Source: a virus (Duplodnaviria; Caudoviricetes). From it: a DNA stretch of 64,000 nucleotides. The notes under the pieces were generated by a model. It worked only from the letters and a program-made list of their open reading frames with translations. It searched no databases and was not told the origin of the DNA. Shown piece after piece: positions 30,562-58,558 of this stretch. A program made the translations under genes and the position numbers. Position 1 is the first letter of the stretch. Each line of letters begins with the position of its first letter. The stretch spans positions 199,687 to 263,686 of the IMG/VR virus record IMGVR_UViG_3300021387_001774; one strand, 5' to 3'.

Positions 30562-30655
30562 TATTATAATAGTAAGAGGGATTTACTCCCTCTTACTTAT
30601 ATTAAAACTGTTCAAGATTATATATTATATTAATAGAATAAACTGAAAAAGAAGT

Positions 30656-30716
30656 ACCTGAGTAGGAGAAATGAAAGGGTCACCTAATGAATAGGTCTAC
30701 TATGCTATAGGGATAA
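30656..30716 (+). promoter_or_regulatory. conserved structured 5' leader RNA, copy B
   Basis: Nearly identical to copy A, with a compensated P2 (ACCTA/TAGGT). Confidence 0.8.
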
Positions 30717-30738
30717 ATTCATAACATAGGAGGAAAAT

Positions 30739-31485
30739 ATGGACGAAATGATTATTAGATGGAACAATGGAAAAATCAATTATGATGAATCTATTGGCGG
30801 AACATTCAAGATTGAATTGATTGCCAATACGTTTAAATTTAAACGTATTTCGGGATCAGCAATTCCAACTGATCAGTTGATTGGGTTCCTATGGTTCTGG
30901 CCTGGTCTTGAAAAGGCCAGAGAAAAGGCCAAGAATCTGCGGAGAATAAATCCGTGGAAAGTCAGTCGTAGAGATGGAATGTCGGGTTGTTCCGACTGGT
31001 ATATCCAGTTTTTGGATAGGCTCGGGTTCGTTAGAAAAACCAAGACCATCATCCATTCATCAATGAATGGAAAACAAAATGAGGACATAGATGTCTGGGT
31101 TAAAGACCTCTATGATGTTCTGTGGTGGATGAAGAAGGAAGGATGTTTTCCTTCTTCATTTGAAGGAGGACCTGATCCTGATTGTTTCGCATTTCTTGAT
31201 ATAACCGATGAGGTTATATCAAGACGAAAAGAATTCAACGAAGGTTCACTCGAACCTGAATGTGGGTTTGGATACGAGGAAGCGCTGATCGATGAAGATC
31301 TTCTTTATAAAGATCACTTAAATGACTATTCTAACTACACTCCTACTACTGAGGAGAAGGAGGAAGAGGTTGACGATAATGGGATCCGCCCCGTCGTTCC
31401 CGTCTCTTCTAACTATCGAGGAAAAGATGGGATCCGCCCCGTCGTTCCCGTCTCTTCTAAAGAGGATGAAGACGAATTTGTTTGA
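30739..31485 (+). CDS. hypothetical early cassette protein, acidic C-terminus with duplicated GIRPVVPVSS
   Basis: AGGAGG RBS; Trp-rich. Confidence 0.85.
   Translation: MDEMIIRWNNGKINYDESIGGTFKIELIANTFKFKRISGSAIPTDQLIGFLWFWPGLEKAREKAKNLRRINPWKVSRRDGMSGCSDWYIQFLDRLGFVRKTKTIIHSSMNGKQNEDIDVWVKDLYDVLWWMKKEGCFPSSFEGGPDPDCFAFLDITDEVISRRKEFNEGSLEPECGFGYEEALIDEDLLYKDHLNDYSNYTPTTEEKEEEVDDNGIRPVVPVSSNYRGKDGIRPVVPVSSKEDEDEFV
31379..31460 (+). repeat. 34-bp GC-rich direct repeat x2 (period 48)
   Basis: ATGGGATCCGCCCCGTCGTTCCCGTCTCTTCTAA at 31379 and 31427. Confidence 0.95.
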
Positions 31486-31501
31486 TTCCTAATCTTCTTA
31501 A

Positions 31502-31558
31502 ACAGTAAAACATCCTTATGGAGGTTTTCTGTACCGTATTTCTACGGTTTCTTTTTTT
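31502..31558 (+). terminator. conserved 3' double-hairpin trailer, copy 1
   Basis: ACAG-T-AAAAC...GTTTT-CTGT + ACCGTA/TACGGT + T tract; also at 46921 and 58459. Confidence 0.8.
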
Positions 31559-31602
31559 CTATAAAAATGACAACCCTATATACTAATTAATGAGGATTTG
31601 TT

Positions 31603-34600
31603 ATGAATGATATATTAACTGATGCGGTTAAACCGTTTAAATTGATACGTCCTAAAACAAATAAGGGTGAACCACATCCTCTTATTACATATACTAAACA
31701 ATTATCAGGAAACATTTTTTTTAATGTCGGATCTTCTACAGACGATATAAAGAATGGTCTTATGAATCTTTTTGGACCAAATGGAGCACAGAAATCTTTT
31801 AAGAGATATTATTATCCAAAAAAGATTGTATGGAAACCTTCACTTTATGTACAACCTAGAGAAGTAACGGTATTAAATCCAAAAGAAAAGACAGAATTTG
31901 TTATGAAAAATATTCCTAGGTTTAATGGTATGGTTAGAGATAGAGTAATAGATAATAGAAATCTTATTGTAGATTTTTCAGATCTTATCGCTAAAGCTGT
32001 ACCAACTGAAAGAATGTTTATGCAAAAACCTGATGTTCTTCAGTATGTAGAAAAGATTTATCCAGAAATTATTTGTTATGCTTTATTTAAGAATGATAAA
32101 CATGATACAAGTAAAGATATTGATGTAGAAGAGGGAACGGAAGCATTTACAGAAAAGGTATTTCAGTCTTCTTCAGTTATATCTATGGGTAAAACTGCTA
32201 TAGGTCTTGAACAAGCTGGATTTGATAAATTTATTATTTCTATTCCTTATACACTAAAAGCTACACGTTTCTTAACTCCTCAGTTCTTAAAAGGTTCTCT
32301 TCCTATACAACGTAACATGAAGATCAATCCAGATCTTATTTATCAATTATCTTTGATAAAGTTTGTTTATGAATGTTATGCTGCATACAATGGAGGAGCT
32401 TCTAGTTCTGAATTTGTTAAAGAAGTTATTAGACGTAATGTAGTATTCCATTTCTATTGTGAAACTGGTGTAGGTTTTACTATAAATTTAAGAGAACTTA
32501 AATCTTATCTCAGATATAATACAGATAGATTCCTTAAACTTTTTATAAATAGACTTAAAGTATTAACTATGTGTAATACTGGTGCTCTTAAAACTTCAGA
32601 TATCGATGAAATCGATAAAGATGAAGTTAATGAAGAGATAGAAGGATACTATAAGAAATCTTCTGATATTCTTGATGAAGAAAATAGTAATACTATAAAG
32701 TCTAAACTTAAAAAGACTTTTAAATCTATTCTTAAACATGATGATGTTTTAAAAACTATAGCTGATGCAAAAAATAAGAATGGGGAAGATGAAGTAATAG
32801 AATTCCCAGAAGAAGTACAAGATACTTCACATAAGATGGCTCATGGTATTGCTATAAAGAGTAAAGCAAAATATGATAAAGATTCTATGAATAAACTGGC
32901 AGATATTGAGAAACAGTTTAGTAATAAAAATACAACAATTGTTTCTCATGATAAAGAAGAAGCATCCGATATTACTCTTACAGATTCAGATTTTGATGAA
33001 ATTCTTAATAGTAACGATGGTGAAACTGAACAAGTTGATGAAACGGAAATCGATGATGAAAATCTCGTCGAAGAATCAAATAATACAGATGAATCAGATT
33101 TTTCTTTTGATGATGAAGATAAAGAATTTGATGAGATGTACGAATTTGATGAGACAGAAACTACGGATGATGACATAGAGGAAGAACCAGAATATGTAGA
33201 AATAAAACAACCTAAAACTGGTCCTATTAAACTAGAAAAAGTAGAAAATAAAGAAGTTTATAGAACACCTGCCGAACAGAAACGTTTGAATAATCTTAAA
33301 GAGAAATATAAATCTGTAGAGCTTAATGGTAAAAAGATTGAAGATATTATTGGTGATTCTTCTAAAATCGAATTAACTAAAAGTTCAGAGACTATCACAG
33401 ATAAACCAAAGACTAAAGATCAAGATACTATGAATATGAATCTTATGGATTTTCAACGTTCATATATTGAGAATAATTATCAATCCGATATAATTAATGC
33501 TGTACGTTCTCTTTCTATTAATAAAGAGAATCCTCTTTATATTACTGGTGCAAAAGTAAATGATTCTTCAGATCAGTTTAACGATCGTTATTCTTATGAG
33601 TTTACTCTAGAGGATGAGAATAAAAAGAAACATACGCTCAAGTTTGATATTCCAAAGATTGACGAAACTGGTAAGATGAAAATCAATGGTACAGAATATT
33701 ATCTTAAAAATCAGTTGATTAGAAAACCAATTGTTAAGATTGGTCCAGATAAAGTTTATGTAACTACTCAACTTAACTCTTTCCAAGTAATGCGTACTGG
33801 AATTATGCTAAATCGTGGTTCTGAAGTTATTCGAAAACTCTTTGGATTATATTTAGACGGTAAAGAAAATGTTATTGTAGAACGTGGTGATTGTGAATTG
33901 GATAATGCACCATATCTTACTACGCTCGAATATGATGTACTTGCTAAATCTTACTTTATGATTAAAATCAATAATGAAAAGAGTAAGTATGGTGAATATG
34001 TAGAGATATTCTTCTCACAGAAAGCTATTCGTGAACGTATAGAAAAGCATAGTATTAATACTGGATATAAAGATAATGTACTTCCAGATAATATCTTACC
34101 AATCGCTATTAACTATACGACAAAAACCCTTGTTACCATAGATATAAATCAAAATAATAGTGTTAATAGTACTATTATAGCATTATTGAATGAATATCTT
34201 AAAGATCCTCACTTATTGGAATTCGTTAAGAGTGTAAAGACTCCTAAGAAACGTCTTTCTACTAAAATAGAAATTCAGTCATTTACTGTACCTCTTATAG
34301 CTTTCTTGAATTATCTATTTGGATGGGATAGAGTTTCTAGTTATTTCAAAGAAAATGAAATAGAATTCTCTGATAAACTTATTAAGAATACTAATAAAAT
34401 GAGTATAAAGTTTTATGATGGGTATCTGTATTATAATCAGTATCCTATTCGTGGAGCTTTGTTCTTAAATGGTCTTACAGAAATAGATACAGAGAATTAT
34501 AAGTACGAAGATCTTAATAATCAAGGTCTATACATAAATTATACATATAATCGTTTTAAAACAAGAAACGTTGTTAAAGGTTGGATAACTGCTAAAGAGA

Positions 34601-36450
34601 ATATGCTCGATCTTAAGACATTACAGATTCTTGAAGCTCTTAAACTTCCTACAGATTTCTTGGAAATATTCTTGTATTGTAATGATCTTCTTGTGGATAA
34701 TCAATGTCCATCTGAATCAGATATTAGTAATTATAGACTTCGTTCTAATGAAATTGTATCTGAATGTTTATTTAAAGTACTTAATGATCATTATAACGTA
34801 TATAAGAAACGTTCTGGAAAGACAAATAAAATGTCTATTCCACCAGATGCAGTAATTTCTAAAGTACGTCAAACTGAAATTCTAGAAACATATAACTCTA
34901 TTTCTCCTGTAGGTGAAATTCGTGACTTTGGTATGACTACATTTAAAGGACCAGGTGGAACAAAAGTTGATCAAGCATTTACTCTTGGTAAGCGTGCTTT
35001 CGATAGTTCTTATTATGGTATCTTTGGTATGTCTACCCCAGATAACTCTAATGCTGGTGTTCAGAAAGAATTAACATTGAATCCGAATATTCAGAATACT
35101 TTAGGATTCTGTGCACCTATAGATAGAAATTCTAGGTCTATTACCAATCTTGCTCCAATTGGTGAAGCTATTATGCCATTCGTTACAGACTATGATGATC
35201 CTTCTCGTATTGCGTTTGCATCTATTCAGTCTAATCACGTTGGTGGTATGATGAATGCTTCATTACCTGTTGTAAGAACTGGTATAGAAAAGACTATTAA
35301 ATATCAAACAAGTGAATCGTTCGCTAAAGTAGCTAAAAAGAATGGTGTTATTTCTAGTATAGATGAAGTAGAAAAGAAAGTATATATAACTTATAAAGAT
35401 GGAACCAAAGATATAATAGATTATAAGAATGCGATGATGAAAAACTCTGATGCATTTAACCAAGCTGAGTATGAATGTTTCGTAAAGGTTGGTCAAAAAG
35501 TAGGTCCTAGAGATCTAATAGCTGGAGATGCAAGATTCTTCAAGAAAGATCCAATTACCAAAGAAATTATTTATACACAAGCTGTAAATGGTTTAGTAGC
35601 TATTACTGAAGGCTCTTATACAGAAGATGACTCTAGTTTGTTGTCTGCATCATTTGCTGATAAATTGGTTATAGACTTTACTAAACGTAAACAAATATCA
35701 CTAAAAGCTTCCGATACACTTATTGAATATAAAACTGTAGGTGAAAAAGTAAGTCTTGGTGATCCAATTATAGTATTTGATGAATCTGGTGCTTTCGAAG
35801 AAGAGCAAGATGATGAAGAAGATTCGATGTATAAGATGTTGTTTGATAATCTTGATAAAGAAACTTTGGCTCAAATGATTCACCAAACGCCAAAAGCTCC
35901 AATATCTGGTACTATTTCCGATATGAAAGTTTATTGGACAGTTCCTGTGAATAAATTGAGTAAGACTCTTGGTAATTTTGTCAAAGCATATATAAAGAAA
36001 ATAACTAAAGAAATAGTTGAAGAAGAAACATTTACAGGTAAACCATCACCTAAACGTAAACTTATTGATGTGACTAATGTTACAGCTGGTAGAGATCGTG
36101 TTAATGGATGTGAGGTTGATCCTGATGGTGCAGTAGTTATAGAATACTTTATTTCTCATGGAGATACAATGTCTGCTGGCGATAAAGTTTCATTAAACTC
36201 AGCACTTAAAACAGTTACTTCAACAGTAGTACCTAAAGGTCTAGAACCTTATAGCGAATCTGGTAAACGTATTGATGGTATATTTAGTTTGATCTCTGTA
36301 GATGCTCGTATGATTAATTCTGTTTGGTACACAGGTTGGTTAGGAAAGATTTTGTATGACTATTCAAAACGTTTTGCAAAGGAATTCTTAACAGAAATCG
36401 GTGCTGATATACCAAAAAATCCAAGAGATGTAACGGTTGTAAAAAAATAA
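31603..36450 (+). CDS. rpoB: phage RNA polymerase beta subunit (N-terminal/main part) with long N-terminal extension and acidic linker
   Basis: KINGTEY, STPDNSNAG, PFVTDYDDPSR, YTEDDS, GDKVS...K, RMINS; late promoter at 31569. Confidence 0.9.
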   Translation: MNDILTDAVKPFKLIRPKTNKGEPHPLITYTKQLSGNIFFNVGSSTDDIKNGLMNLFGPNGAQKSFKRYYYPKKIVWKPSLYVQPREVTVLNPKEKTEFVMKNIPRFNGMVRDRVIDNRNLIVDFSDLIAKAVPTERMFMQKPDVLQYVEKIYPEIICYALFKNDKHDTSKDIDVEEGTEAFTEKVFQSSSVISMGKTAIGLEQAGFDKFIISIPYTLKATRFLTPQFLKGSLPIQRNMKINPDLIYQLSLIKFVYECYAAYNGGASSSEFVKEVIRRNVVFHFYCETGVGFTINLRELKSYLRYNTDRFLKLFINRLKVLTMCNTGALKTSDIDEIDKDEVNEEIEGYYKKSSDILDEENSNTIKSKLKKTFKSILKHDDVLKTIADAKNKNGEDEVIEFPEEVQDTSHKMAHGIAIKSKAKYDKDSMNKLADIEKQFSNKNTTIVSHDKEEASDITLTDSDFDEILNSNDGETEQVDETEIDDENLVEESNNTDESDFSFDDEDKEFDEMYEFDETETTDDDIEEEPEYVEIKQPKTGPIKLEKVENKEVYRTPAEQKRLNNLKEKYKSVELNGKKIEDIIGDSSKIELTKSSETITDKPKTKDQDTMNMNLMDFQRSYIENNYQSDIINAVRSLSINKENPLYITGAKVNDSSDQFNDRYSYEFTLEDENKKKHTLKFDIPKIDETGKMKINGTEYYLKNQLIRKPIVKIGPDKVYVTTQLNSFQVMRTGIMLNRGSEVIRKLFGLYLDGKENVIVERGDCELDNAPYLTTLEYDVLAKSYFMIKINNEKSKYGEYVEIFFSQKAIRERIEKHSINTGYKDNVLPDNILPIAINYTTKTLVTIDINQNNSVNSTIIALLNEYLKDPHLLEFVKSVKTPKKRLSTKIEIQSFTVPLIAFLNYLFGWDRVSSYFKENEIEFSDKLIKNTNKMSIKFYDGYLYYNQYPIRGALFLNGLTEIDTENYKYEDLNNQGLYINYTYNRFKTRNVVKGWITAKENMLDLKTLQILEALKLPTDFLEIFLYCNDLLVDNQCPSESDISNYRLRSNEIVSECLFKVLNDHYNVYKKRSGKTNKMSIPPDAVISKVRQTEILETYNSISPVGEIRDFGMTTFKGPGGTKVDQAFTLGKRAFDSSYYGIFGMSTPDNSNAGVQKELTLNPNIQNTLGFCAPIDRNSRSITNLAPIGEAIMPFVTDYDDPSRIAFASIQSNHVGGMMNASLPVVRTGIEKTIKYQTSESFAKVAKKNGVISSIDEVEKKVYITYKDGTKDIIDYKNAMMKNSDAFNQAEYECFVKVGQKVGPRDLIAGDARFFKKDPITKEIIYTQAVNGLVAITEGSYTEDDSSLLSASFADKLVIDFTKRKQISLKASDTLIEYKTVGEKVSLGDPIIVFDESGAFEEEQDDEEDSMYKMLFDNLDKETLAQMIHQTPKAPISGTISDMKVYWTVPVNKLSKTLGNFVKAYIKKITKEIVEEETFTGKPSPKRKLIDVTNVTAGRDRVNGCEVDPDGAVVIEYFISHGDTMSAGDKVSLNSALKTVTSTVVPKGLEPYSESGKRIDGIFSLISVDARMINSVWYTGWLGKILYDYSKRFAKEFLTEIGADIPKNPRDVTVVKK

Positions 36451-36486
36451 AAAAAAACTAGTGGGTCTATACCCACTAGTTTTTAT

Positions 36487-36804
36487 CTACGCTTCTTCCC
36501 AAACAGAGTAGTCACGTTCACCATCATCAACATACGAAGAATTACTGTTATTAACAGAATCTTTTTCATTTGGATATTTAATCTTATATTTATTGTATTC
36601 AGTTAAACCATAACATATTGAATCTAATATTGATTTAGAAACGTTAGAAATCGTTTCTAGTTTATTTTCAATAATTTTTGTAATTTTTTCTTCATCTTTG
36701 GTTATAAAATCTAAAGTTGATTTTACATCTTCTTTAGATATTTCTGATCCATCAGAATTCAATATCTCGATAATGTGACCATGTTCATCTCTAGTTATTT
36801 TCAT
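36487..36804 (-). CDS. hypothetical early protein
   Basis: GGAG RBS; early promoter 36870-36856 on the minus strand. Confidence 0.75.
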   Translation of the reverse strand: MKITRDEHGHIIEILNSDGSEISKEDVKSTLDFITKDEEKITKIIENKLETISNVSKSILDSICYGLTEYNKYKIKYPNEKDSVNNSNSSYVDDGERDYSVWEEA

Positions 36805-37098
36805 AGTATAACTCCATAAAATATAAATAGTAGAGTTATTTCTAACTCTCCATTTATATAATATGTAAATAAAAAAAGAGCGGTAGGCTTATCCTACCGC
36901 TTATTTGTTTTATAATTAAAACAAATCATTAAATCATAGAGTGATTATAAATTCCTGGGAGGGGAAAACAAGATGGCTATTTCACATGTTTAACAAAAAG
37001 AAACTTGTGTAACGATTCCACTCTAAAAATCGTAGGGCCTAACCATCTATATTTATATATTCACATATTTATATAAAATTAAATTTATAGGAGATATT

Positions 37099-37575
37099 AT
37101 GGATGAAGAATTCAAAATTTCGAAAAAGCTTATTATTGCTTGCTGTGTTACTATTGTTCTTTGTATCGGGTCTTTCTGCGCAGGCAGATACATCCGATTT
37201 GGAAGAATTTCAGGAACTAGCCAGCAGCTTATCGACGGAATCGTACTTAGCAGAGAAACAGCAGATAAACTCGCTAATGAGCTTAATATTGCAGGAGCTT
37301 CGCTCAAGTCCTCAGAAAACTATGGACAAACAATCCTTGAAGGAATTGGAGAATTACGAAAAGCTAGTGAAGTCGGCAGATTATGCTCAGATGCCATTAA
37401 GCTCTCAATTGAAAGAGATGCGGAAAACAATGAAAATCTACTCCAAGCTAGAGGAGACTATTTCGAATCAGTCGACTATGCTATCGAGTTGGCAGCTCAA
37501 CGTGCTGAATTATATGAGCAAATTGTTCGAACATATGAACAGGCTGTCTCAGATAATGGAAAAAATAGTTACTAG
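37099..37575 (+). CDS. N-terminal TM + coiled-coil protein (i-spanin/Rz-like)
   Basis: KKLIIACCVTIVLCIGSFCAGRY then a helical periplasmic-type domain; AGGAG RBS. Confidence 0.65.
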   Translation: MDEEFKISKKLIIACCVTIVLCIGSFCAGRYIRFGRISGTSQQLIDGIVLSRETADKLANELNIAGASLKSSENYGQTILEGIGELRKASEVGRLCSDAIKLSIERDAENNENLLQARGDYFESVDYAIELAAQRAELYEQIVRTYEQAVSDNGKNSY

Positions 37576-37909
37576 TCAAAATCAGGACATGGGTCTAGCT
37601 ATTGATGAACTAAATAAGGCTTTATCTGATGCTGAATTTCTAAAAACGCATTTAAACACTATGGAGATTTTAGCTAGAAATCAAGCAGAAGAAATAGCAG
37701 CACTAAATAAACGATATAAAGGTTTAAAGAGAGTTAGAATCGGAAGTCTTTGTGTTGGTGGTGCTGGTTTAGTTATAGGTCTTACTGGTTATTTTGTAGA
37801 GAAAAACAGTAGTTCTGAAGATTTAGGTAAAATGATGATGATTGGTGGTGCTACAGCTTTGGGTTGTAGTGCAGCAACATTTGGACTAAGTTTTAGTATT
37901 CCGTTTTAA
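37103..37909 (+). CDS. overprinted exported coiled-coil protein with C-terminal hydrophobic hairpin
   Basis: Signal peptide MKNSKFRKSLLLLAVLLLFFVSGLSAQA; two C-terminal Gly-rich hydrophobic helices ending FSIPF. Confidence 0.7.
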   Translation: MKNSKFRKSLLLLAVLLLFFVSGLSAQADTSDLEEFQELASSLSTESYLAEKQQINSLMSLILQELRSSPQKTMDKQSLKELENYEKLVKSADYAQMPLSSQLKEMRKTMKIYSKLEETISNQSTMLSSWQLNVLNYMSKLFEHMNRLSQIMEKIVTSQNQDMGLAIDELNKALSDAEFLKTHLNTMEILARNQAEEIAALNKRYKGLKRVRIGSLCVGGAGLVIGLTGYFVEKNSSSEDLGKMMMIGGATALGCSAATFGLSFSIPF

Positions 37910-38041
37910 AATAAAGATGGGGTATATTTACCCCATCTTTTTTATTTATATATTATATTAATGAAAGATTCGTTGTATCTTATTATAATAATTATTGAAG
38001 TAGAGATGATACTACTATAAACATAAGGAAGGAATTGGAAT

Positions 38042-38479
38042 ATGACTAAAGAAGAAAAGAAAGAATGTATGAAGAAGTATCGTGAAACTCATAAAGAACA
38101 GATCAAAGCTCAGAATAAGAGGTATTATGATACTCATAAAGATAAAAGCAAAAAATATTATAAAAATAATAAAGATAAAATTATTGAACAGACTAAGAAA
38201 CGCTATGAATCTACTAAAGAACTAGTTTTAAAATTTAATAAATATCGACGATATTTTTATAAGAAATTTTATAGGTTTATTACTTTAAAGAATTATATTA
38301 TTATAATGAAACTAGAAGATGAATCATTAAAACGTTCTATTATGGCTAAGTTAGGTCATGGCATCATAGATCAAGATGAAGCAGTAGCATTATCAGGTAT
38401 GATATTTACAAAAGATGATCTGAAAGAAATGAATGAGTGGCTTTATAATGTCTGTAGATGTAAAAGTAATTTATCTTGA
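38042..38479 (+). CDS. basic K/Y-repeat protein, paralog of 56392..56886
   Basis: KKYRETHK-type repeats; shared C-terminus NY.IIMKL.D.SLKRSIM.KLG.G.I..DEAV.LSGM. Confidence 0.85.
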   Translation: MTKEEKKECMKKYRETHKEQIKAQNKRYYDTHKDKSKKYYKNNKDKIIEQTKKRYESTKELVLKFNKYRRYFYKKFYRFITLKNYIIIMKLEDESLKRSIMAKLGHGIIDQDEAVALSGMIFTKDDLKEMNEWLYNVCRCKSNLS

Positions 38480-38565
38480 TCTATAAATAAAGGTAGTCTT
38501 TAGACTACCTTTATTTTTTTATTCTATATTGAAGACAAACCTATATATTTTATAGGAGAATTACT

Positions 38566-39504
38566 ATGGTTAATAATTATATTGCTAAAGAAGATATGCT
38601 TATAGTAAGTGATGATGATCTTACTTCTTCTAATGGAAAAATTACTAAAACTGTTATGAATGGTGTAAGTGATTGTGCAAGTCTTATTAATGCTATCGAA
38701 AATTACAATGATACTAATAAACTTGGTCTAGGAAAACGTGTCAATTATGCAGTTTCTACAGGAATAACATACATTTCTGTATTAAGAGCTTATCCTGTAG
38801 GTGCTTCACATATGTGTATTATTGGATGGGATAGTAATGGTAAATCTGTTGCCACATTTGATGTTAATAATACACAAACTAATCTTATGACAAGTTTGTC
38901 TACACATTTGATTCCAAATGATAAGATTCATGATGTTGTATTAGGTTCTTGTGATCCTGATAAACTTACAGATATTATTAATACATTTAAAACTAAAGAT
39001 GATATTGATGAGAGAACATTGCTCGATATTCTTGAAAGACTTTATCAAGATATTACTGATTATATTACTTCTAATAACTATAGAGGTGCTATTGAGATCT
39101 TTAATTATACTATGAAATCCAATAACCTCAATGATTATGATTATCATCACAAACGTAGAGCATATAATAAATATGTCGATGTTTATGTTAAATATATTAC
39201 TATTCTTAAAGATATCGTTATGGAATACAATGAATGGTCAAAAACAAAAGATCATGATCTTGCTGTATTTAAGAAAGTAAGATTAGTTGATTTTGTTGAA
39301 ACTGAAGATGATATCGATACGCTTGTTAGAAATAAACATGAATACGAATATGGTACATCTGTTTATGATATGCAGTATGACAGTTGGAAAGCAGAAGTTC
39401 TTCAGAAGACATTTACTGTAGACGAAGTAGAGACTTTCAAACAATGTATCGATTATGAACATATGAGTTTTGATCCAGCTGGTAATCCTATCTGGAAAAA
39501 CTAA
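38566..39504 (+). CDS. hypothetical late protein
   Basis: AGGAG RBS; late promoter at 38534. Confidence 0.8.
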   Translation: MVNNYIAKEDMLIVSDDDLTSSNGKITKTVMNGVSDCASLINAIENYNDTNKLGLGKRVNYAVSTGITYISVLRAYPVGASHMCIIGWDSNGKSVATFDVNNTQTNLMTSLSTHLIPNDKIHDVVLGSCDPDKLTDIINTFKTKDDIDERTLLDILERLYQDITDYITSNNYRGAIEIFNYTMKSNNLNDYDYHHKRRAYNKYVDVYVKYITILKDIVMEYNEWSKTKDHDLAVFKKVRLVDFVETEDDIDTLVRNKHEYEYGTSVYDMQYDSWKAEVLQKTFTVDEVETFKQCIDYEHMSFDPAGNPIWKN

Positions 39505-39637
39505 ATATTATATAAAAGTTACTGGGATTTGTTCCCAGTAACTTTATATTAAACTTGTTGAAGAAATAATCAAATATATATTATATTTATGAAAGATACG
39601 TTGTATCTTATTGAATATATGAAGAGGAGTAATCAAT

Positions 39638-39877
39638 ATGAATAAAACCGAAACTGATCCGTACTATGAAGAAAAATTGAAAAACTCTATTGAAAATTTT
39701 AAAAAATGGTGCTTAAACAACCCAACATGTATTGGAAAAGGTTGTTGTCAAGATTGTACACATTTGATCGATCCTAAACGATATGGAGAATGTTCTGGTC
39801 CTCCATTAGATAGGAACGAATTGTGTGAACCAGGTTATCAACAATTTAAGGAGAAAAATAATGAAGAAGGAAAATAA
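39638..39877 (+). CDS. small Cys-rich early protein
   Basis: GAGGAG RBS; 7 Cys. Confidence 0.7.
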   Translation: MNKTETDPYYEEKLKNSIENFKKWCLNNPTCIGKGCCQDCTHLIDPKRYGECSGPPLDRNELCEPGYQQFKEKNNEEGK

Positions 39878-40208
39878 AGAAATATTAGAACGGATAAAAC
39901 TTGTTATTAAACAATACGATAAAATGGGGGTAACACTTGATTCATTTTTAATTGGTGGTAGAGAAACCGATTATTTTGATGAAAAAGAAAAAGAATTGAA
40001 AATCCCATCTGTAGAATCAATTTACTGTTCAGGTTATATTGATTCTGAAAGTGTTGGACATTTACATCCACAAATATTAATGAGTAAATTTCAATTATAT
40101 AATGAATCTGTTAATAGTCTTATAAATGGAGCACTTGGTAAAGAAAATAATGAATTTTCTAAATCTACATTTTTAAGAACTACTGGGATTAAACGTATCG
40201 ACGATTAA
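39861..40208 (+). CDS. hypothetical protein (start ATG 39861)
   Basis: AAGGAG RBS. Confidence 0.75.
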   Translation: MKKENKEILERIKLVIKQYDKMGVTLDSFLIGGRETDYFDEKEKELKIPSVESIYCSGYIDSESVGHLHPQILMSKFQLYNESVNSLINGALGKENNEFSKSTFLRTTGIKRIDD

Positions 40209-40316
40209 TTGAAAGAATAGAAGGGTGCTGCCATCCACCCTTCTTTTTTTATTTTTTTCTTAAATATATATTATAAGAAAGATACTTACAATAAAATATC
40301 TATAAAGGAGTAAATT

Positions 40317-40541
40317 ATGGCAGTTGTTAGAATTAATAAAGCTGGTAAAAGAATCCATCATCGTAATCCTTCGGGATTCATAAATAAAATAAGGTATTTG
40401 TTATGCGAATCAAAAAGAGATATTGGTAAACTACGATATATTGTTAAATATGAAATAGATTATACTAATTGTGGTAAAGCGACTTGGGATCATGCATATT
40501 CGATGGCTTTGAAACTAATAATTAATGGAGATACTTTATAA
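40317..40541 (+). CDS. small hypothetical protein
   Basis: AAGGAG RBS. Confidence 0.75.
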   Translation: MAVVRINKAGKRIHHRNPSGFINKIRYLLCESKRDIGKLRYIVKYEIDYTNCGKATWDHAYSMALKLIINGDTL

Positions 40542-40551
40542 GGAGTTATAT

Positions 40552-42963: not shown

Positions 42964-42978
42964 AAGGAGAGTCGGAGA

Positions 42979-43518
42979 ATGAGTATATTAGCTATAGCTA
43001 CAGAGTTTAATCGTTTGGTTAAATCTAAATCTGGACCTATCTCTGATGATTATAACGTTCAATTGAATGTGGAATTATTTAGAGATACTGTGTCCAATAT
43101 TTTTAATAACGAAATGTTAAAACTTAAGATAGAAGTTCTTACAGAATATTCTGTTGATAGTAAAGAGTTTGTTGATTATATTAAAACCAAGATAATCAAT
43201 TTAGATTATTCATTTTTACCATCTGGTATTAATAGAGAAGACACATTATGTATTTGCTCAGCCACATTAAAAAATGACTATAAAATCATTGGTACCTTTG
43301 TTTGTCAAAAAGGTAAATATGTTAAGAAAACTATGGAAAATAGAGCGTTTGATGATGTGCTGGATAAACTAAAAACTTTAGAACGATATTATCTTATGAA
43401 TAAACTGTTTGAAGTAAACGATAAAATAAATAACTTAAGAATGGTCAAAATGGATATTGAAAGAAATTTAATTAATCTAATCAAAAACAATAAAGTTATT
43501 ATTCCAATAGTTTTCTAA
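42979..43518 (+). CDS. hypothetical protein
   Basis: AAGGAG/GGAG RBS. Confidence 0.75.
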   Translation: MSILAIATEFNRLVKSKSGPISDDYNVQLNVELFRDTVSNIFNNEMLKLKIEVLTEYSVDSKEFVDYIKTKIINLDYSFLPSGINREDTLCICSATLKNDYKIIGTFVCQKGKYVKKTMENRAFDDVLDKLKTLERYYLMNKLFEVNDKINNLRMVKMDIERNLINLIKNNKVIIPIVF

Positions 43519-43539
43519 ATTTTATTATAACATATAAAT

Positions 43540-43726
43540 ATACTTGTATGTACACGAATTGAATTTTGAAATTTTTGATTAAAGAAATTTGCCTTTTTGT
43601 AGGAAGTGTTATGAACATAGTATAACCCACTAGTTTATAACGCGGGTCGTATCAATGGGTTAGATACGATAACATAACCTCGTGACTACATATTTCCCTT
43701 AGTCACGAGGTTATTATTTTTTTTTT
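43540..43726 (+). ncRNA. candidate late sRNA S4 (pseudoknot-capable, anti-SD terminator loop)
   Basis: Late promoter at 43529; TCGTATC/GATACGA hairpin whose loop TGGGTTA can pair with upstream TAACCCA; 14-bp terminator stem with loop ACATATTTCCCTT. Confidence 0.55.
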
Positions 43727-43793
43727 GAATCAATGTATGGTTTTCTAGTTTTTACCGCATTGATTAGAAAAATTTAAAACGATATATTTTTAT

Positions 43794-45578: not shown

Positions 45579-46312
45579 AAGCTATACGTAAAAAATATGA
45601 AACTCAATTGTATGCTCTTATGGATGATATGGATCCATCAGGATATAATACAGAACTATACAAAGAAACTTTTTCCAAAATGAGTAACAAAGATTTTATT
45701 CAAATGTGTAAAAATATGATTGCTAATGATGATCAAAATTTCTCATTTGAAATAAAGCAATTAGAAAAACCAAAAGATGGTGGTATTTCTCTAGATAAAA
45801 TAAAGAATATTGCCAAGAAATATAATATAAAACTTGTTGAGTATATGTTTATGCCATTTAGAAATCCTAATGGTGAGCCTATGTGTACTTATACAAGAGT
45901 ACCTATAGTTTATGCACCAATACGACGTTTCTTTCAGCAGATGCTTCAACACAAGAACTCTATTTCAAATAACAATACAAAGATTAATCCTATTACTGGA
46001 CAGGTAACTTCTGAAGATAAAACTGCTTCTACAACAAATATTCAGACTTATGCATTAACTATCACTAATAGAAAAAATGCTCTTAAAGAATATTTAGGAC
46101 CTCGTTCTGATGATAATGTTGCTAAACAAGAAATGTTAACTCAGATAGAGAATACGGGTAGATTTAGACTAGAAGATACAAATATTCAGACTCATAATAA
46201 ACGTTCTATAAAAACTTCTGAAGTATTTGCTAAAGCTGCTGGAGTTATTATGGAATTCGCTGGAAATGATTATAAGATTAATCTTGATGAACTAGAAGTT
46301 GAACATGAATAA
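45557..46312 (+). CDS. phage RNA polymerase beta subunit, C-terminal fragment
   Basis: QQMLQHK...NPITGQV...ALKEYLGPRSDD aligns with the beta C-terminal conserved blocks missing from 31603..36450. Confidence 0.7.
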   Translation: MLPDEKIKAIRKKYETQLYALMDDMDPSGYNTELYKETFSKMSNKDFIQMCKNMIANDDQNFSFEIKQLEKPKDGGISLDKIKNIAKKYNIKLVEYMFMPFRNPNGEPMCTYTRVPIVYAPIRRFFQQMLQHKNSISNNNTKINPITGQVTSEDKTASTTNIQTYALTITNRKNALKEYLGPRSDDNVAKQEMLTQIENTGRFRLEDTNIQTHNKRSIKTSEVFAKAAGVIMEFAGNDYKINLDELEVEHE

Positions 46313-46406
46313 AAGAATACTGGGTATTTATTACCCAGTATTCTATAACTACTGTTAAACCCCACTATCTAATTATATATTATATTAATGAAGTAAGTCG
46401 TATGAC

Positions 46407-46501
46407 TGAAACATAATAATTATAAGAGGGATAATAAGAGAAATAAAACCCCACCTCAGAGAAGAGGTCTACCGAAAGGAGATATAAACACAAGGGAAGA
46501 A
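46407..46501 (+). repeat. 95-bp perfect repeat with 57782..57876 (structured leader copy D)
   Basis: Direct sequence identity. Confidence 0.95.
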
Positions 46502-46505
46502 AATT

Positions 46506-46910
46506 ATGAAGAAAATTGAAGATGGAATCCATGACGTATCAAACTACATGTTGGCTAATCGCCAGATATTCACTGTAGAAGAAATGGAAGAGTTGAGGAA
46601 TCAATTTCTCAATATAAAGCCAGGTTATTATGTTAAACTGTGGGTTTTCAATGATGAACTATGTATACAGGTAGCCGGCGATTTTATTCTGTTAACGAAG
46701 GTCGATAAGACCGACGCAATCTTCAATCATATGGATTTAGGATTTAAAATCCGATCCATACATGGAGATTCTCTGTACGGAGAAATCGTGGATGTCTCAA
46801 AAGATATCTACGATACTAACGGTTCCCGGGTAACGCCTAAGGATTGGTTATATAGCCTCGATCATAATAGCATAAATTATGATCGAGCTTTAACTGGCCA
46901 TCGTCTTTAA
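46506..46910 (+). CDS. hypothetical early cassette protein
   Basis: Between leader D and trailer copy 2. Confidence 0.8.
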   Translation: MKKIEDGIHDVSNYMLANRQIFTVEEMEELRNQFLNIKPGYYVKLWVFNDELCIQVAGDFILLTKVDKTDAIFNHMDLGFKIRSIHGDSLYGEIVDVSKDIYDTNGSRVTPKDWLYSLDHNSINYDRALTGHRL

Positions 46911-46920
46911 TCTCCAATAA

Positions 46921-46976
46921 ACAGTAAAACTCTTTATAGAGTTTTCTGTACCGGATTGCTACGGTTTCTTTTTTTT
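46921..46976 (+). terminator. conserved 3' double-hairpin trailer, copy 2
   Basis: ACAG-T-AAAAC-TCT-TTAT-AGA-GTTTT-CTGT + ACCG/CGGT + T tract. Confidence 0.8.
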
Positions 46977-47031
46977 AATTATATATTATATTAATGAGTA
47001 AGATCGTATGATCTGAAAAATAAAATATTAA

Positions 47032-47104
47032 AACCTAAGTAGGAGAAATGAAAGGGTTGCTTCGGAGATGAAGCCTACCAGAAATGGGGATAAAGCACAA
47101 GGAG
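47032..47104 (+). promoter_or_regulatory. conserved structured 5' leader RNA, copy C
   Basis: AACCT...GGGTT, GCTTC/GAAGC, CTA, CCA-GAAA-TGG, GGATAA. Confidence 0.8.
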
Positions 47105-47111
47105 TTATATT

Positions 47112-47846
47112 ATGACTAAAGAAGAAAAGGGTATTTCGAAAGACGCAGAGTTTTCAAAACATTTTTTAACAGTATTTTCAAGTGTTATACATGCATTTAA
47201 AACTCTTCCAAAAGATGTTAAAGAAAAAATTGAAAAATCCGTCGATGAATGTTTGGTAACGTGTTCTCCTTATTCATTAACATATTTTGCTAATACATTA
47301 AAAAGATGGCAAACAAAAGATATTGTCGAAAATGAAAAGAAGGAAACGGAAACAACTGAAGATAAAACTATAACAACTTTGGCAGACTTTATTAATGAAA
47401 AGAATGAAAAGTGTATAGAATTAGGAACACCAAGGGGCGGTAATTATGAACCTTCGGATATTAAAGCCTATCGAACTCTTGCTTTAATATTGATTGACAA
47501 AGATTGTTGGTGTGATGGGTGGAAGAGAGATGCAGATTCAATGGTGCTCATTTTATCTGAAAAAGGTACACAAATGATGAGAGAATGCGTCGAGATTCTT
47601 GGAAGCGAATCATTAGAATCAAATCCATTTATTATTGATCCAGTTATTTCTTCAAGAACTTATATACAAATTAAAGGATTTTATAAAACAAACATGAAAA
47701 TTGTATTGGGTCGAAGAAATATTTCTATTGATACTGAGAAAGAATTACAGTTCATAATTGATAGACTTTGCATGTTAGGAAATACATCTAAGGAACAAAT
47801 AGTGGATTCGATTAATGACTTGAAGTCACGCTTCAACAGTTTCTAA
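47112..47846 (+). CDS. hypothetical early cassette protein
   Basis: AAGGAG RBS. Confidence 0.8.
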   Translation: MTKEEKGISKDAEFSKHFLTVFSSVIHAFKTLPKDVKEKIEKSVDECLVTCSPYSLTYFANTLKRWQTKDIVENEKKETETTEDKTITTLADFINEKNEKCIELGTPRGGNYEPSDIKAYRTLALILIDKDCWCDGWKRDADSMVLILSEKGTQMMRECVEILGSESLESNPFIIDPVISSRTYIQIKGFYKTNMKIVLGRRNISIDTEKELQFIIDRLCMLGNTSKEQIVDSINDLKSRFNSF

Positions 47847-47972
47847 AAATTCTAATTAAAAGAAAGGGCTTCGTCCCTTTCTTTTTTATAATTATTTTTA
47901 CAATTATATATTATATTAATGTAAAACCTTAGAGTTTTACAAATCTTAATTTAAGGGTGGGTAAAAGGAGAA

Positions 47973-48308
47973 ATGGTGACATTCGTTTTTAGCCATAAGA
48001 GTCAATCTGACGCGATCTCAAGTGCAGAGTATTTGCACAAAGCCATGCAGGGCGACAAAGCATATGTTAACGGTGACATATGTATTTGTGTTTCCACAAT
48101 TGATGGAAAAACAAAGAAGCCAACCTGCGAAGACGGCAATTTGGATTATGCCTTTAACGGAAAGGTATTACATCATTGTGTTCTTCTGGATGTGGGCACA
48201 ATTGATAATCCAGTAGAACCAATTGTAATGGTTCTAGACCATCCATTGGACGATAAGTATAACAGTACTTACGTTCATAAGACTTATGGTCTTGATGAGA
48301 TCGACTAA
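47973..48308 (+). CDS. hypothetical early protein
   Basis: AAGGAG RBS; early promoter at 47902. Confidence 0.8.
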   Translation: MVTFVFSHKSQSDAISSAEYLHKAMQGDKAYVNGDICICVSTIDGKTKKPTCEDGNLDYAFNGKVLHHCVLLDVGTIDNPVEPIVMVLDHPLDDKYNSTYVHKTYGLDEID

Positions 48309-48412: not shown

Positions 48413-50851
48413 ATGGCATTAAAGAACCATTTGACTACAAAAAATACAAAAGATAACCATCACGAACTAACAGCCTTTTTCTATATAAAAGGTTCTAAAG
48501 ATTATCCAGTAGGACAATCTATTTCTGAACCTTTTGGATATGATGTAAAAGAAACTGATGGTGAATCTTCGATTAATAGTGAAAGACCTATTTTCGGTTC
48601 TTCAATCAGGGATCTTTATATAAACTATCCTGATTTACTAGAAGTCACAAATAATTATAGTGGTTATGAAGATACAGATAACTTAATTAGAAGTAATCAA
48701 ACTATTTCACTTAATGGTACTAGACCAAGATTGGATAGAGATGAAGAATACATTAGTACTCTTCTTATTAAGAATGCATCTTCTGATGAAGCATATAAAA
48801 CAATTTATCCCAACTATGAAGCTAGTTCTAAAGAAGAACTTATTGAAAATCTTAATGGTGAAACAACTAAAGTAGATTATTTGATTAATCCTTCTGCTAA
48901 AAAGTTTAATTATCGTACTTGTGTATTCTGGCAGAAGATTTTTACATTACTTGAATATATCAAGAAATATGAATCTCACATTTATGCTGATGAACAGGGT
49001 AATATTCCTATGCCTGGATTCTTTGATGATAATAGTACTTATTGGTACAGAAATCCTCAACAGGCTATTAACAAGGTATCTTCATTACCTACATTAGCAA
49101 AATATATTGCACTATTTATTCCGCATGTTATGCCAAGTAATAGTGCTACACAAAATATTGCTGATCTTGTACCTAAGAGACATCTTTTTAATCCTGTACG
49201 TACACGTATTATTGCTGGTGATGGAGAAGAAATTTCTACATATAAACTAGACGATAATTATAAATACGGAGAAGATGAGAACTTTAAAAAAGAATTTTCT
49301 ACAGATGTTTATCTTGATCAATTGTGGAATAAACTAGACGCCAATGCTAATGATGATGGTAAAGAAATGATGTTTGATGGTCTTGATATTCGTATTACGG
49401 ACCTTTATAATATTTCTTGTTCATTCTCAGAGCATACTGGTCGTCTTACAAAGATTAGATTTGAATTAGGTTATAAACATCTTACTGACGTTGAAGGTCA
49501 GAACTTTACAGAAGAAGAAGATAATTATGAAACCTGGGCATTCAATATTTATTTTGATCCAGATGCTTTCATAGATAGTGATACAACTACTGAACAATTC
49601 CCAGTATGGACATATAATGATCTTGACTTCGATAATGAATTTAGAGGTCAAGAATATCAGTATGACTATACAAATCCTCTGTTCAATAAGTTTGATAATG
49701 ACTATGCAAACATTCTTGTTCCTAATACAGAACCAGATGGAACACCAATATTGAATTCTATTCATGGTAAGTTTGTTGCTACAGCAGCTGAAATTGAATC
49801 TCAGATGTTGAAAGCTGTTCTTGATAAAACAAAGTCTGGTGGATATACTAACTATACAATTTATCCAGTTAAACGTATTTCTCCGTATATTGGAGACGAT
49901 GGTGAGGTTGTATGGGATCCTTCTAACGCTATCGATCAGAAGTTCTATATCTTCTATAAGAACGTTCCTCCAACATCAGAACAGTGTAATACAGCTGTAT
50001 ACAATTATCTTCTTACCTTACATAGTGATACAAATAATTGTCATGGTGAACACAGAAATCCTGATACAAATAAAGTAGAGTTTATTGGTCACGATCCAGA
50101 AAATATTGCTGAGACAATTAACTTCTTAGCAAATATGTATCCTACATTGTTTGAAGCTACAGAGATTTATATTATCCCTGCAGATAAAAAACATTGTTCA
50201 AATGGTAATAATGTAGATTTGGCAGATTATAGTGATCCTCAAACATACTTTAGCGGAACTACACCAAAACGTATTAGAGAATCTATTGTAAATACAAAGA
50301 AAGAATTTGAACAATTCTCATTTACACAGACTGGTGAACCACAGAATTCTAGTTCTACTACTCTTAAATATTATCCAGTTGAAGTATTTAAGATTGGTTC
50401 TATTGAAGGTTCAGATAATGGTTCTACATCATTTAAGTTTGACTTCCCTTGGTATGCTGTAAATAAGGGTGGTAACTTAGCTGATAATTGTCTTACTACG
50501 CTCGAAGGTTTCCACGATTATAAACAAAAGATGTTTGCTAATAGTCAAGATCCTACAAGTATGGCAGATATATTCCAGATCATTATGATTCTTCTTACTA
50601 GAAATATGTTTACTGGTCCAAGTAGTATTAATATGCATGATCCTATGAAATCGCGTTATGGTAATATTCTTGGTATTCCTATTACGTATAGTATAGATAA
50701 TGAAAAGGATACAACTGTTTCTGATAAGTATTATAATAAAGCAACATTTGTTATTAATGCTGTTAAGTTTATAGTATATGCTCAGAATGGTAAAGACTTT
50801 GGTTCAACTACTGGACGTTCTATTAATATTACTAGTATAGGAAGTATTTAA
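48413..50851 (+). CDS. large late (virion structural) protein
   Basis: 812 aa; late promoter at 48373. Confidence 0.75.
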   Translation: MALKNHLTTKNTKDNHHELTAFFYIKGSKDYPVGQSISEPFGYDVKETDGESSINSERPIFGSSIRDLYINYPDLLEVTNNYSGYEDTDNLIRSNQTISLNGTRPRLDRDEEYISTLLIKNASSDEAYKTIYPNYEASSKEELIENLNGETTKVDYLINPSAKKFNYRTCVFWQKIFTLLEYIKKYESHIYADEQGNIPMPGFFDDNSTYWYRNPQQAINKVSSLPTLAKYIALFIPHVMPSNSATQNIADLVPKRHLFNPVRTRIIAGDGEEISTYKLDDNYKYGEDENFKKEFSTDVYLDQLWNKLDANANDDGKEMMFDGLDIRITDLYNISCSFSEHTGRLTKIRFELGYKHLTDVEGQNFTEEEDNYETWAFNIYFDPDAFIDSDTTTEQFPVWTYNDLDFDNEFRGQEYQYDYTNPLFNKFDNDYANILVPNTEPDGTPILNSIHGKFVATAAEIESQMLKAVLDKTKSGGYTNYTIYPVKRISPYIGDDGEVVWDPSNAIDQKFYIFYKNVPPTSEQCNTAVYNYLLTLHSDTNNCHGEHRNPDTNKVEFIGHDPENIAETINFLANMYPTLFEATEIYIIPADKKHCSNGNNVDLADYSDPQTYFSGTTPKRIRESIVNTKKEFEQFSFTQTGEPQNSSSTTLKYYPVEVFKIGSIEGSDNGSTSFKFDFPWYAVNKGGNLADNCLTTLEGFHDYKQKMFANSQDPTSMADIFQIIMILLTRNMFTGPSSINMHDPMKSRYGNILGIPITYSIDNEKDTTVSDKYYNKATFVINAVKFIVYAQNGKDFGSTTGRSINITSIGSI

Positions 50852-57676: not shown

Positions 57677-57781
57677 AAATGTTTCTCCTAAGAAATATAT
57701 AAGATATATAGAATTGTTTCGAGGTACTGTTCAAACCCCCCGATTGATTATATATTATATTAATGAAGTAACCTGTATAGG

Positions 57782-57876
57782 TGAAACATAATAATTATAA
57801 GAGGGATAATAAGAGAAATAAAACCCCACCTCAGAGAAGAGGTCTACCGAAAGGAGATATAAACACAAGGGAAGAA
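57782..57876 (+). repeat. structured leader copy E (identical to 46407..46501)
   Basis: Direct sequence identity. Confidence 0.95.
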
Positions 57877-57878
57877 CT

Positions 57879-58448
57879 ATGGAAAAATTTAGATATGACC
57901 TTGGTGGTACAGAGTTTAGCGGAAAGGCAGAGAGATGGTTTACTGCTTTGAATAAAGCGGCAAACTCAACCTGTCGTTATGAAGAATGGAACAGTGATCA
58001 GTGGGGTAGGCCTTTCGGCCACCACGCAGAACTGGTGGCAAATTCTAAAGAAGACCTTGAAAAAGGTCTTAAAATTCTGGAATCATCCGGCAGATTCGAA
58101 AGGATCCCCGGGGATCCAAGAACTTTAGCTAGGTGGATTGCACCATCTAGAGGTAAAACACCATTCGCATATAATATGCGAAAGCAAGACCTGGCGAATC
58201 AGGTTAAGAAAAAGTTGAACCTAAATGATCGGCAATGGGCCGATCTTGCAAATGGGAAACCAGTATTTATTGGGGAGCAGATACTTCTCAATCAGTCATG
58301 GTTTTATGGCTATGGCCCAGATGGTGATGGGCCACACAAATGTGTGGTGTTCATATCATCTTGGCCTACGCAAAGGTTAGTTCTACAAAGAACTGACGAA
58401 AGAGGGTTTCTGGACGACAGTGTCCAGAAACGATGGGGTATCAAGTAA
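57879..58448 (+). CDS. hypothetical early cassette protein
   Basis: GC-rich relative to the genome; between leader E and trailer copy 3. Confidence 0.85.
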   Translation: MEKFRYDLGGTEFSGKAERWFTALNKAANSTCRYEEWNSDQWGRPFGHHAELVANSKEDLEKGLKILESSGRFERIPGDPRTLARWIAPSRGKTPFAYNMRKQDLANQVKKKLNLNDRQWADLANGKPVFIGEQILLNQSWFYGYGPDGDGPHKCVVFISSWPTQRLVLQRTDERGFLDDSVQKRWGIK

Positions 58449-58458
58449 CTATTAAAAA

Positions 58459-58514
58459 ACAGTAAAACTCCATAAGGGGTTTTCTGTACCGTATTATTAC
58501 GGTTTCTTTTTTTT
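58459..58514 (+). terminator. conserved 3' double-hairpin trailer, copy 3
   Basis: ACAG-T-AAAAC-TCC-ATAA-GGG-GTTTT-CTGT + ACCGTA/TACGGT + T tract. Confidence 0.8.
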
Positions 58515-58558
58515 CTATAAAAATGACAAACCTATATACTTATAATGAGGTTATATTA

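Follow-up and report, generated by a model that had tools for sequence, protein, structure and literature searches.

Early genes of an AR9-like jumbo phage are probably shuffled as self-contained units between repeated regulatory frames

We have analysed a stretch of 64,000 nucleotides (the window; bases 199687–263686) of one 263,686-bp virus record (IMG/VR IMGVR_UViG_3300021387_001774), which has a G+C content of 29.5% and an estimated completeness of 94%. Three small early units in the window, named here U3 (30607–31558), U4 (46351–46976) and U5 (57726–58514), consist of ACTGTT, an exact early promoter, a structured leader, an unrelated open reading frame (ORF) and a double hairpin. An initial annotation had proposed this layout, which we found at the same coordinates. 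Two further units are located elsewhere in the genome (U1, with its leader copy at genome position 73486, and U2 at genome position 90023, with its leader copy at 90039), and the five double-hairpin units are dispersed over 185 kb. Our analysis suggests with good confidence that these are early "moron" units, each complete in itself, and that recombination between their repeated regulatory frames shuffles them, as in a jumbo-phage analogue of the promoter early stem-loops (PeSLs). The PeSLs have been described in T4-type phages (Arbiol et al. 2010, PMC2839356; Comeau et al. 2014, PMC4122927). The initial annotation had left the choice between such an analogue and a site-specific system of gene capture. 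The swaps within fixed flanks and a chimeric leader agree with the former, while the latter is not supported and lacks the expected marks, as breakpoints vary and neither a suitable enzyme nor a target duplication was found.

Exchange is directly visible in relatives, which have flanks of 94–99% nucleotide identity and differ exactly at the framed genes. The comparison of syntenic loci, proposed initially as a check, was carried out with metagenome and IMG/VR contigs (L001, L152 and others) and revealed ORF swaps with fixed flanks at U3, U4 and U2 as well as an occupied versus an empty site at window positions 39505–39575. The ORFs are not fixed at these loci across the relatives; the same sites hold unrelated ORFs or none. 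At the U3 site, L152 is 93.6% identical in nucleotides to the window in the upstream virion gene and 98.7% identical from the late promoter into the RNA polymerase gene. Between these flanks, L152 has CTGTT 17 nt ahead of the promoter, a leader of the other subtype, a 78-aa ORF unrelated to that of U3 and the double hairpin, and identity ends just past CTGTT and resumes in the T-run after hairpin 2. At the U4 site, the downstream 812-aa gene of L132 is 92.4% identical in nucleotides and an unrelated 157-aa ORF is present in the same frame; the next unit encodes a 37%-identical homologue and the third unit (47905–48308) is absent. In L054, next to a neighbour gene of 99% amino acid identity, a complete cassette (ACTGTT, promoter, 195-aa ORF and double hairpin) followed by a second promoter occupies the site 39505–39575, where the window has one promoter and no hairpin remnant, as would be expected from promoter-to-promoter recombination. 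At the U2 site, L066 has kept CTGTT, promoter and hairpin while leader and ORF are swapped for a small-protein unit like that at window position 16193. In the unit after U2, both L001 and L087, which are independent assemblies, have an unrelated ORF of 130 aa in place of the 274-aa ORF, with the leader (of a second family, F2) and the terminator unchanged. In L078, a cassette with double hairpin is inserted between convergent genes and the upstream terminator is also exchanged. No target-site duplication was found at the L054 and L078 insertions.

The breakpoints vary from case to case (promoter/promoter, leader/terminator, CTGTT/T-run and terminator/T-run). After the double hairpin of L066 (positions 6921–6962), the 3' half of a common terminator is joined to a late-promoter fragment like that at 31560–31583, a junction that looks like a recombination scar. 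Exchange has also left its trace within the genome itself. The U5 leader matches the U1 copy at seven of seven informative sites in its 5' hairpin (genome 73486) and the U2 copy at nine of nine sites downstream (genome 90039), with 52 nt of identity between the two blocks. This pattern (1111111/222222222) is what exchange or gene conversion would leave, here between copies 17 to 184 kb apart. From these sequences we infer that the exchange is homology-driven. Homologous cargo diverges fast within nearly unchanged frames, as judged from two pairs: U3 and L120 share a leader of 96% nucleotide identity and an ORF of 41% amino acid identity, and U2 and L001 have ORFs of 72% amino acid identity between flanks of 96–98% nucleotide identity. 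For the U5 site, searches of viral contigs with the gene at 58523, the N-terminus of the gene at 31603 and the U5 ORF gave no relatives, and the U5 ORF was not found in four related records.

The promoter at the head of the units points to a polymerase carried by the virion. The ORF at 31603–36450, just downstream of U3, matches phage RNA polymerase beta families in PHROGs, and its best tblastn matches are in Listeria phage LPJP1, Bacillus phages AR9 and PBS1 and Staphylococcus jumbo phages at about 30% amino acid identity; the AR9 counterpart is annotated as the virion RNA polymerase beta subunit. A nucleotide search of phage records with positions 30000–48000 gave no match. On these matches, and with no close relative in the phage collections, the source genome belongs to an uncultured, AR9-like jumbo phage that encodes multisubunit polymerases of its own. 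The 16-nt promoter core is present in 13 exact copies in the window, and 24 copies have at most two mismatches (2.3 expected); genome-wide, about 40 copies are found on both strands. The core fits the experimentally mapped early consensus of AR9, AAATATATATTAT-(6N)-G+1 (Lavysh et al. 2017, PMC5312081), and the units agree with the consensus TATATATTAT-(6N)-G that marks the start of AR9-type early transcription units in phages with a virion multisubunit RNA polymerase. The predicted start is therefore the G (A in U3) directly after the core, and the promoter is probably served by the injected virion RNA polymerase. It is not of the host sigma-70 type, and sigma-70-like sites are no commoner in the sequence than in shuffles. 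Behind the hairpins of U3 and U5 stands a motif that departs by one mismatch from the AR9 late motif AACA-(6N)-TA (PMC5312081).

CTGTT is located 16–18 nt upstream of the core at 12 promoters of the genome, eight of which head units without the terminal double hairpin; the reversed control pattern gave 0. U3 is the exception with a spacer of 6 nt. The homologous frames in L152 and L120 have 17 nt, which argues for a deletion in the U3 spacer. Among the 124 distinct promoters of the genome and its relatives, ten have both CTGTT and hairpin, eight CTGTT only, nine the hairpin only and 97 neither. The two elements therefore often travel together in the clade yet are separable, and the small Fisher P for their co-occurrence is not a probability of function because the copies are kin. 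Double-hairpin units without CTGTT occur in L002, L003, L005, L083 and as the second copy in a related 276-kb record; the CTGTT element is absent from this 276-kb relative, AR9 and LPJP1. We read CTGTT as a putative clade-specific upstream promoter element at a fixed distance, and not as a recombination end; in this respect the initial annotation, which had taken ACTGTT for the left end of the unit, has to be revised. We also considered a late promoter in antisense within ACTGTT or the hairpin and rejected it by eye, as its spacing does not fit.

U4 and U5 share a block of exactly 95 identical nucleotides in their leaders (46407–46501 and 57782–57876), in agreement with the initial annotation. 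This type (DE) and the U3 type (A) can be aligned as one family, F1, and the common core comprises three short helices, conserved purine-rich loops and a ribosome site at the end. The leader model R2 finds seven copies in the genome and 13 across all DNA compared. In the 13 copies, 88.7% of the cells are paired as compared to 70% in shuffles and 29–66% in slid controls, and seven of the 12 pairs stay paired through changes on both sides. This covariation is good, not final, support since the model guided the alignment and the copies are kin to each other. A search of Rfam at the gathering threshold returned only tRNAs, and an E-value scan of 46340–47130 gave only matches at chance level, with leader and hairpin unmatched. 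On its covariation, the ~90-nt leader is one three-helix RNA family that is absent from Rfam and new here. It is absent from the 276-kb relative (AR9 and LPJP1 were not searched for it). Other parts are also reused by the early units (in the window at 37963 and 56314, among others), namely the leader families F2, with nine copies in the genome, and F3, with three, a few types of 5' hairpin right after the start site, and terminators that fall into repeated families. On the minus strand, a non-coding unit at 13101–13232, headed by a promoter of the early type, would encode a small RNA (13101–13213, minus strand) in which a CU-rich stretch of ~15 nt is complementary to the ribosome-site region of F2 leaders, e.g. 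upstream of 38042 and 56392. With F1 leaders, the predicted duplex energies of this RNA are within the range of shuffles, and only an 8-nt match was seen by eye.

The 3' element folds as two adjacent hairpins (−17.2 kcal/mol, z −4.15). With a covariance model of the element (R1), exactly five copies were recovered from the whole 263,686 bp at E values from 1e-9 to 1e-17, three in the window and two at genome positions 73996 and 90459. A set of 13 distinct copies shows no variation in the outer stems (ACAG/CTGT and AAAAC/GTTTT) or at the start of hairpin 2, and three inner pairs of hairpin 1 vary yet remain paired. The invariance of the outer stems is partly imposed by the search patterns, although two copies found by the model only keep the same stems. 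The pattern scan of metagenomes was loose and left, after filtering, 12 genuine double hairpins in ten fetched loci. The fold, the covarying inner pairs and the exact promoter copies are as initially described, while two other features of that description held in part. The bulged T, described as conserved, is present in the three window copies and absent from the fully paired copies at genome 73996 and in the 276-kb relative, the latter found independently. ACTGTT and AACAGT form inverted copies over 10 of 11 bp in U3 and over only 7 bp in U4 and U5. Hairpin 2 has four pairs only and a terminator scan was silent on the element; its terminator activity is therefore suggested by position only. 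In two places (46976/46980 and genome 90520), the double hairpin borders with its T-run on the early promoter that follows, and many other terminator–promoter composites form the repeat families D1–D3. The double hairpin is absent from AR9 and LPJP1.

The cargo differs from unit to unit. The ORFs of U3, U4, U5 and the two further units have no detectable pairwise similarity, so that the description of the ORFs as unrelated can be extended to five. The framed ORFs have a G+C content of 37–48% and a third-position G+C of 0.39–0.47. Over all seven units with an F1 leader, the cargo has a G+C content of 0.31–0.485 (six of the seven are at 37.5% or more), while cargo in the F2 frame has 24.5–30.4% and the long ORFs 29.6 ± 3.8%. 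The relatives present the same picture (33–45.5% in the F1 frame versus 23.5–29.4% in the F2 frame). The F1 cargo is therefore compositionally foreign, as is expected of morons, and this marked GC-richness is new here. The window also carries five tRNA genes (Met, Leu-UAA, Lys-UUU, Gln-UUG and Asn; window 17313–18545 and 8330–8405), mostly amid early promoters, and the set reads A/U-ending codons, in contrast to the GC-rich F1-frame cargo.

None of the cargo ORFs matches a Pfam or PHROGs family; PHROGs matches are confined to the conserved neighbours, which are virion and RNA polymerase genes, and the units are positioned between these conserved late genes. The U5 ORF has six homologues of 59–83% identity, all metagenomic and none with a Pfam domain. 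Homologues of the U5 ORF and of the ORF at 19558 come solely from metagenomic contigs, some of which are as large as a jumbo-phage genome, and contain no Pfam domain. The family of the U3 ORF comprises 78 clusters (50% identity, E ≤ 1e-3) with invariant G39, R69, H106 and S108 and also lacks a Pfam domain. Its AlphaFold2 model has a confidence (pLDDT) of 86, with residues 1–170 mostly above 95, and gave no match in the PDB (Foldseek E ≥ 0.024; best VIA-align Z 3.2 over 48,161 chains), such that the predicted structure may represent an undescribed fold. The U5 model (pLDDT 71) likewise had no significant match in the PDB (Foldseek E of 0.017 or worse). Neither family has a second copy in the genome. 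Within the U3 ORF, at 31381–31460, a 32-nt stretch is repeated 48 nt downstream in frame, giving GIRPVVPVSS twice, and the L120 homologue has one copy. The cargo would presumably act in host takeover or counter-defence.

Taken together, each unit is built of five parts: a predicted promoter for the virion RNA polymerase, in this clade often with CTGTT 17 nt upstream; usually a short 5' hairpin; the leader of ~90 nt with three covarying helices and purine-rich loops; a small, GC-rich cargo gene of foreign composition; and a sequence-conserved pair of stacked hairpins with a T-run that would insulate the next gene. The non-coding parts are repeated in the genome and common to related phages and therefore provide homology that is portable. 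The intervening genes would be deleted, inserted or replaced as recombination or copy-choice takes place inside promoters, leaders and terminators. The non-coding kit would thereby double as functional frame and recombination substrate, which is the logic of the PeSLs.

No recombinase had been seen in the window by the initial annotation, and this holds genome-wide for the five Pfam families tested. In the six-frame translated genome, tyrosine integrase (PF00589), serine resolvase, reverse transcriptase and Y1 HUH transposase (PF01797) gave no match, while all control genomes matched, which argues against the known site-specific systems. RecA, the fifth family, was also unmatched in the genome and matched in the controls, and this is one of several observations that weigh against the shuffling of morons by homologous recombination. 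CTGTT and hairpin co-occur above chance, although the counts come from related copies and are not independent, and in two cases (L078 and U3/L152) the left limit of the exchanged segment is at CTGTT. Hairpin 1 is conserved in nucleotides among phages with proteins that are 25–65% identical, which exceeds the need of a plain terminator, and a simple terminator scan flags nearby ordinary terminators and not the double hairpin. Finally, every relative is a metagenomic contig. It is possible that host enzymes or divergent phage proteins are the source of recombination.

The same observations can be viewed differently. If the frame were an RNA-level regulon, leader and hairpin 1 would be bound by a phage factor (a protein or a small RNA) that co-regulates the stability or translation of early mRNAs; the frame would be conserved by purifying selection and the cargo differences would reflect fast in-place divergence together with unrelated indels. 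The covariation of the leader in three helices with invariant purine-rich loops, the conservation of hairpin 1 far above the surrounding DNA, the fast divergence of cargo in near-identical frames (96% in nucleotides versus 41% in amino acids for U3/L120; 72% in amino acids for U2/L001) and the complementarity of the small RNA at 13101–13213 to the F2 ribosome site would suit such a regulon. However, cargo at the same site is unrelated rather than diverged, whole units are present or absent, the U5 leader is chimeric and the GC-rich cargo would be left without explanation. We consider the regulon unlikely as the explanation of the cargo differences, though it is compatible with the shuffling of units and not exclusive of it. 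There is also a slim chance that hairpin 1, and perhaps CTGTT, is the recognition site of a putative phage factor and that the frame is a dedicated device for the import and expression of foreign genes, which would explain the conservation of the hairpin sequence among phages with proteins of only 30–65% identity, the joint travel of CTGTT and hairpin and the confinement of GC-rich cargo to the F1 and not the F2 frame.

Dedicated mobile cassettes, in which ACTGTT and the AACAGT hairpin are the ends used by a putative recombinase or transposase, as DNA or as a folded single strand, seem very unlikely to us. Such cassettes would account for the co-occurrence of ACTGTT and hairpin, for the L078 insert, which spans ACTGTT through the T-run after the hairpin, for the start of the U3/L152 exchange at CTGTT, for the 10/11-bp inverted repeat of U3 and for a hairpin 1 that is conserved in sequence and bulged in most copies. 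However, ACTGTT stands at the fixed distance of 17 nt from eight promoters without hairpin, and hairpin units without ACTGTT occur in L002, L003, L005, L083 and the 276-kb relative. U4 and U5 have an inverted repeat of only 7 bp, two hairpin copies lack the bulge, and the empty site (39505–39590) retains a promoter and no hairpin remnant. Targets are not duplicated, other swaps break inside the leader or at the promoter, and no integrase, resolvase, Y1 HUH or reverse transcriptase family was found in the genome; inverted ends of 6–7 bp would also not yield excision as a circle. Least probable of all is that the swaps are assembly errors, in which frame repeats of 60–150 bp let assemblers join cassettes to the wrong flanks. 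The genome and all relatives are indeed metagenome assemblies and the frame repeats reach 95 nt of exact identity. Yet the foreign cargo ORFs have no counterpart in this genome, and vice versa, and the cassettes are therefore not merely misplaced. Moreover, independent assemblies have the same arrangement (L001 and L087; L066, L078 and L125), and indels of the L054 type need no repeat-crossing join on one side.

The coordinates of the units and of associated features in the window are presented in Table 1.

Table 1. Units, frame elements and adjoining motifs, in window coordinates (R1, double-hairpin model; R2, leader model).
Feature	Position	Strand	Details
Fourth window unit with F1 leader	19425..20163	+	promoter 19425–19440, leader 19476–19560, ORF 19558–20163 (GC 43.8%)
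U3 upstream ACTGTT	30607..30612	+	6 nt from promoter core; elsewhere 17 nt
U3 early promoter core	30619..30634	+	exact match; predicted start 30635 (A)
U3 structured leader, F1 family, A subtype	30650..30741	+	R2, 77 bits, E 8e-18
U3 cargo ORF	30739..31485	+	248 aa, GC 41.5%
U3 double-hairpin putative terminator with T-run	31496..31558	+	R1, 72 bits
Late-promoter-like motif before virion RNA polymerase beta gene (31603–36450)	31569..31583	+	repeat families D12/D17
"Empty" site	39505..39590	+	single promoter in the window; full cassette here in relative L054
U4 upstream ACTGTT	46351..46356	+	17 nt from promoter core
U4 early promoter core	46374..46389	+	predicted start G 46390, then short 5' hairpin 46396–46407
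U4 structured leader, F1 DE subtype	46422..46508	+	R2, 97 bits; covariation
U4 cargo ORF	46506..46910	+	134 aa, GC 37.5%
U4 double-hairpin putative terminator	46915..46976	+	T-run abuts next early promoter 46980–46995
Early unit after U4	46980..47885	+	promoter, F1 A leader 47027–47114, ORF 47112–47846, canonical terminator 47858–47885
U5 upstream ACTGTT	57726..57731	+	17 nt from promoter core
U5 early promoter core	57749..57764	+	predicted start G 57765
U5 structured leader, F1 DE subtype	57797..57881	+	R2, 96 bits; 5' hairpin 57771–57782 just upstream
U5 cargo ORF	57879..58448	+	189 aa, GC 44.2%
U5 double-hairpin putative terminator	58453..58514	+	R1, 88.6 bits
Late-promoter-like motif before virion structural gene 58523–59347	58525..58539	+	one mismatch to the AR9 late motif

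The fourth window unit with an F1 leader ends in an ordinary terminator and not in the double hairpin. The unit at promoter 16177 (window 16148–16400) encodes a 48-aa ORF behind a GC-rich leader hairpin; it is without the double hairpin and is homologous to small-protein cassettes that bear it in the relatives L066, L078 and L125. Three ORFs of exactly 812 aa are present in the genome, two in the window (40525–42963 and 48413–50851) and one at genome positions 188866–191304. Homologues in the relatives match different members of the three, which are possibly paralogues.

The orphan early genes of jumbo phages with their own RNA polymerase probably decide host takeover and counter-defence, and their gain and exchange have been little documented. 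The units described here would extend modular shuffling of the PeSL type to a phage that relies on a polymerase other than that of its host. A practical rule for locating accessory early genes in such phages would be to search between this promoter and this hairpin. The analysis also adds two new candidate RNA elements, the three-helix leader and the sequence-conserved double hairpin, and the frame could serve as an expression cassette for engineering these phages.

Several known systems share single features with these units. As in integrons, an imperfect hairpin with a bulged base stands behind each of the unrelated ORFs, reminiscent of attC hairpins with their extrahelical bases. However, no tyrosine recombinase of the IntI type is present (PF00589 is unmatched in the whole genome), the units have their own promoters and are dispersed instead of being arrayed at an attI site, the bulge can be absent and the breakpoints do not converge on a single core site. 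We considered and rejected a core of the integron type: some left ends have GTTAAAC, which fits GTTRRRY, but others have GTTCAAA, which does not, and the inverse core is not matched by the hairpin arms. From IS200/IS605-type and other HUH elements the units differ in that PF01797 is unmatched and the conserved hairpin is at the 3' end only, not at both ends. Transposons with terminal inverted repeats of at least 10 bp and miniature inverted-repeat transposable elements are distinguished by the inverted repeat of 7 bp in two of the three units and by the lack of duplication at L054 and L078.

Closer parallels are the morons, known from lambdoid and other tailed phages since the concept of Juhala and Hendrix, which are single genes of deviant composition that bring along a promoter and a terminator and separate two genes found side by side in relatives. 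The units resemble them as self-contained inserted single genes with a base composition unlike their neighbours. They differ in that promoter, leader and terminator belong to one reused kit and in that the genes are early genes of a lytic jumbo phage, not genes expressed from a prophage. With AR9 (PMC5312081), the phage shares the early consensus, a start 6 nt downstream, ~40 dispersed early promoters and the late AACA-(6N)-TA motif, while the CTGTT element and the double hairpin set it apart from AR9 and LPJP1.

The PeSLs come closest in organization. In both systems, a repeated composite of early promoter and stem-loop or terminator (~100 bp in PeSLs) precedes small orphan genes, these genes are located in variable regions between conserved genes, indels and replacements among close relatives end in the motifs, and the motifs carry their own transcription signals. 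The formation of mini-circles by recombination of flanking motifs is a further trait of the PeSLs. The genome is not that of a T4-type myovirus, however, since its nearest cultured relatives are AR9/PBS1, LPJP1 and the Staphylococcus jumbo phages. The promoter would be read by a phage-encoded virion multisubunit RNA polymerase, whereas the PeSL promoter is of the host sigma-70 type. To the PeSL plan, the units of this AR9-like jumbo phage add the covarying leader RNA of ~90 nt, the sequence-conserved 3' end of two hairpins and a GC-rich cargo.

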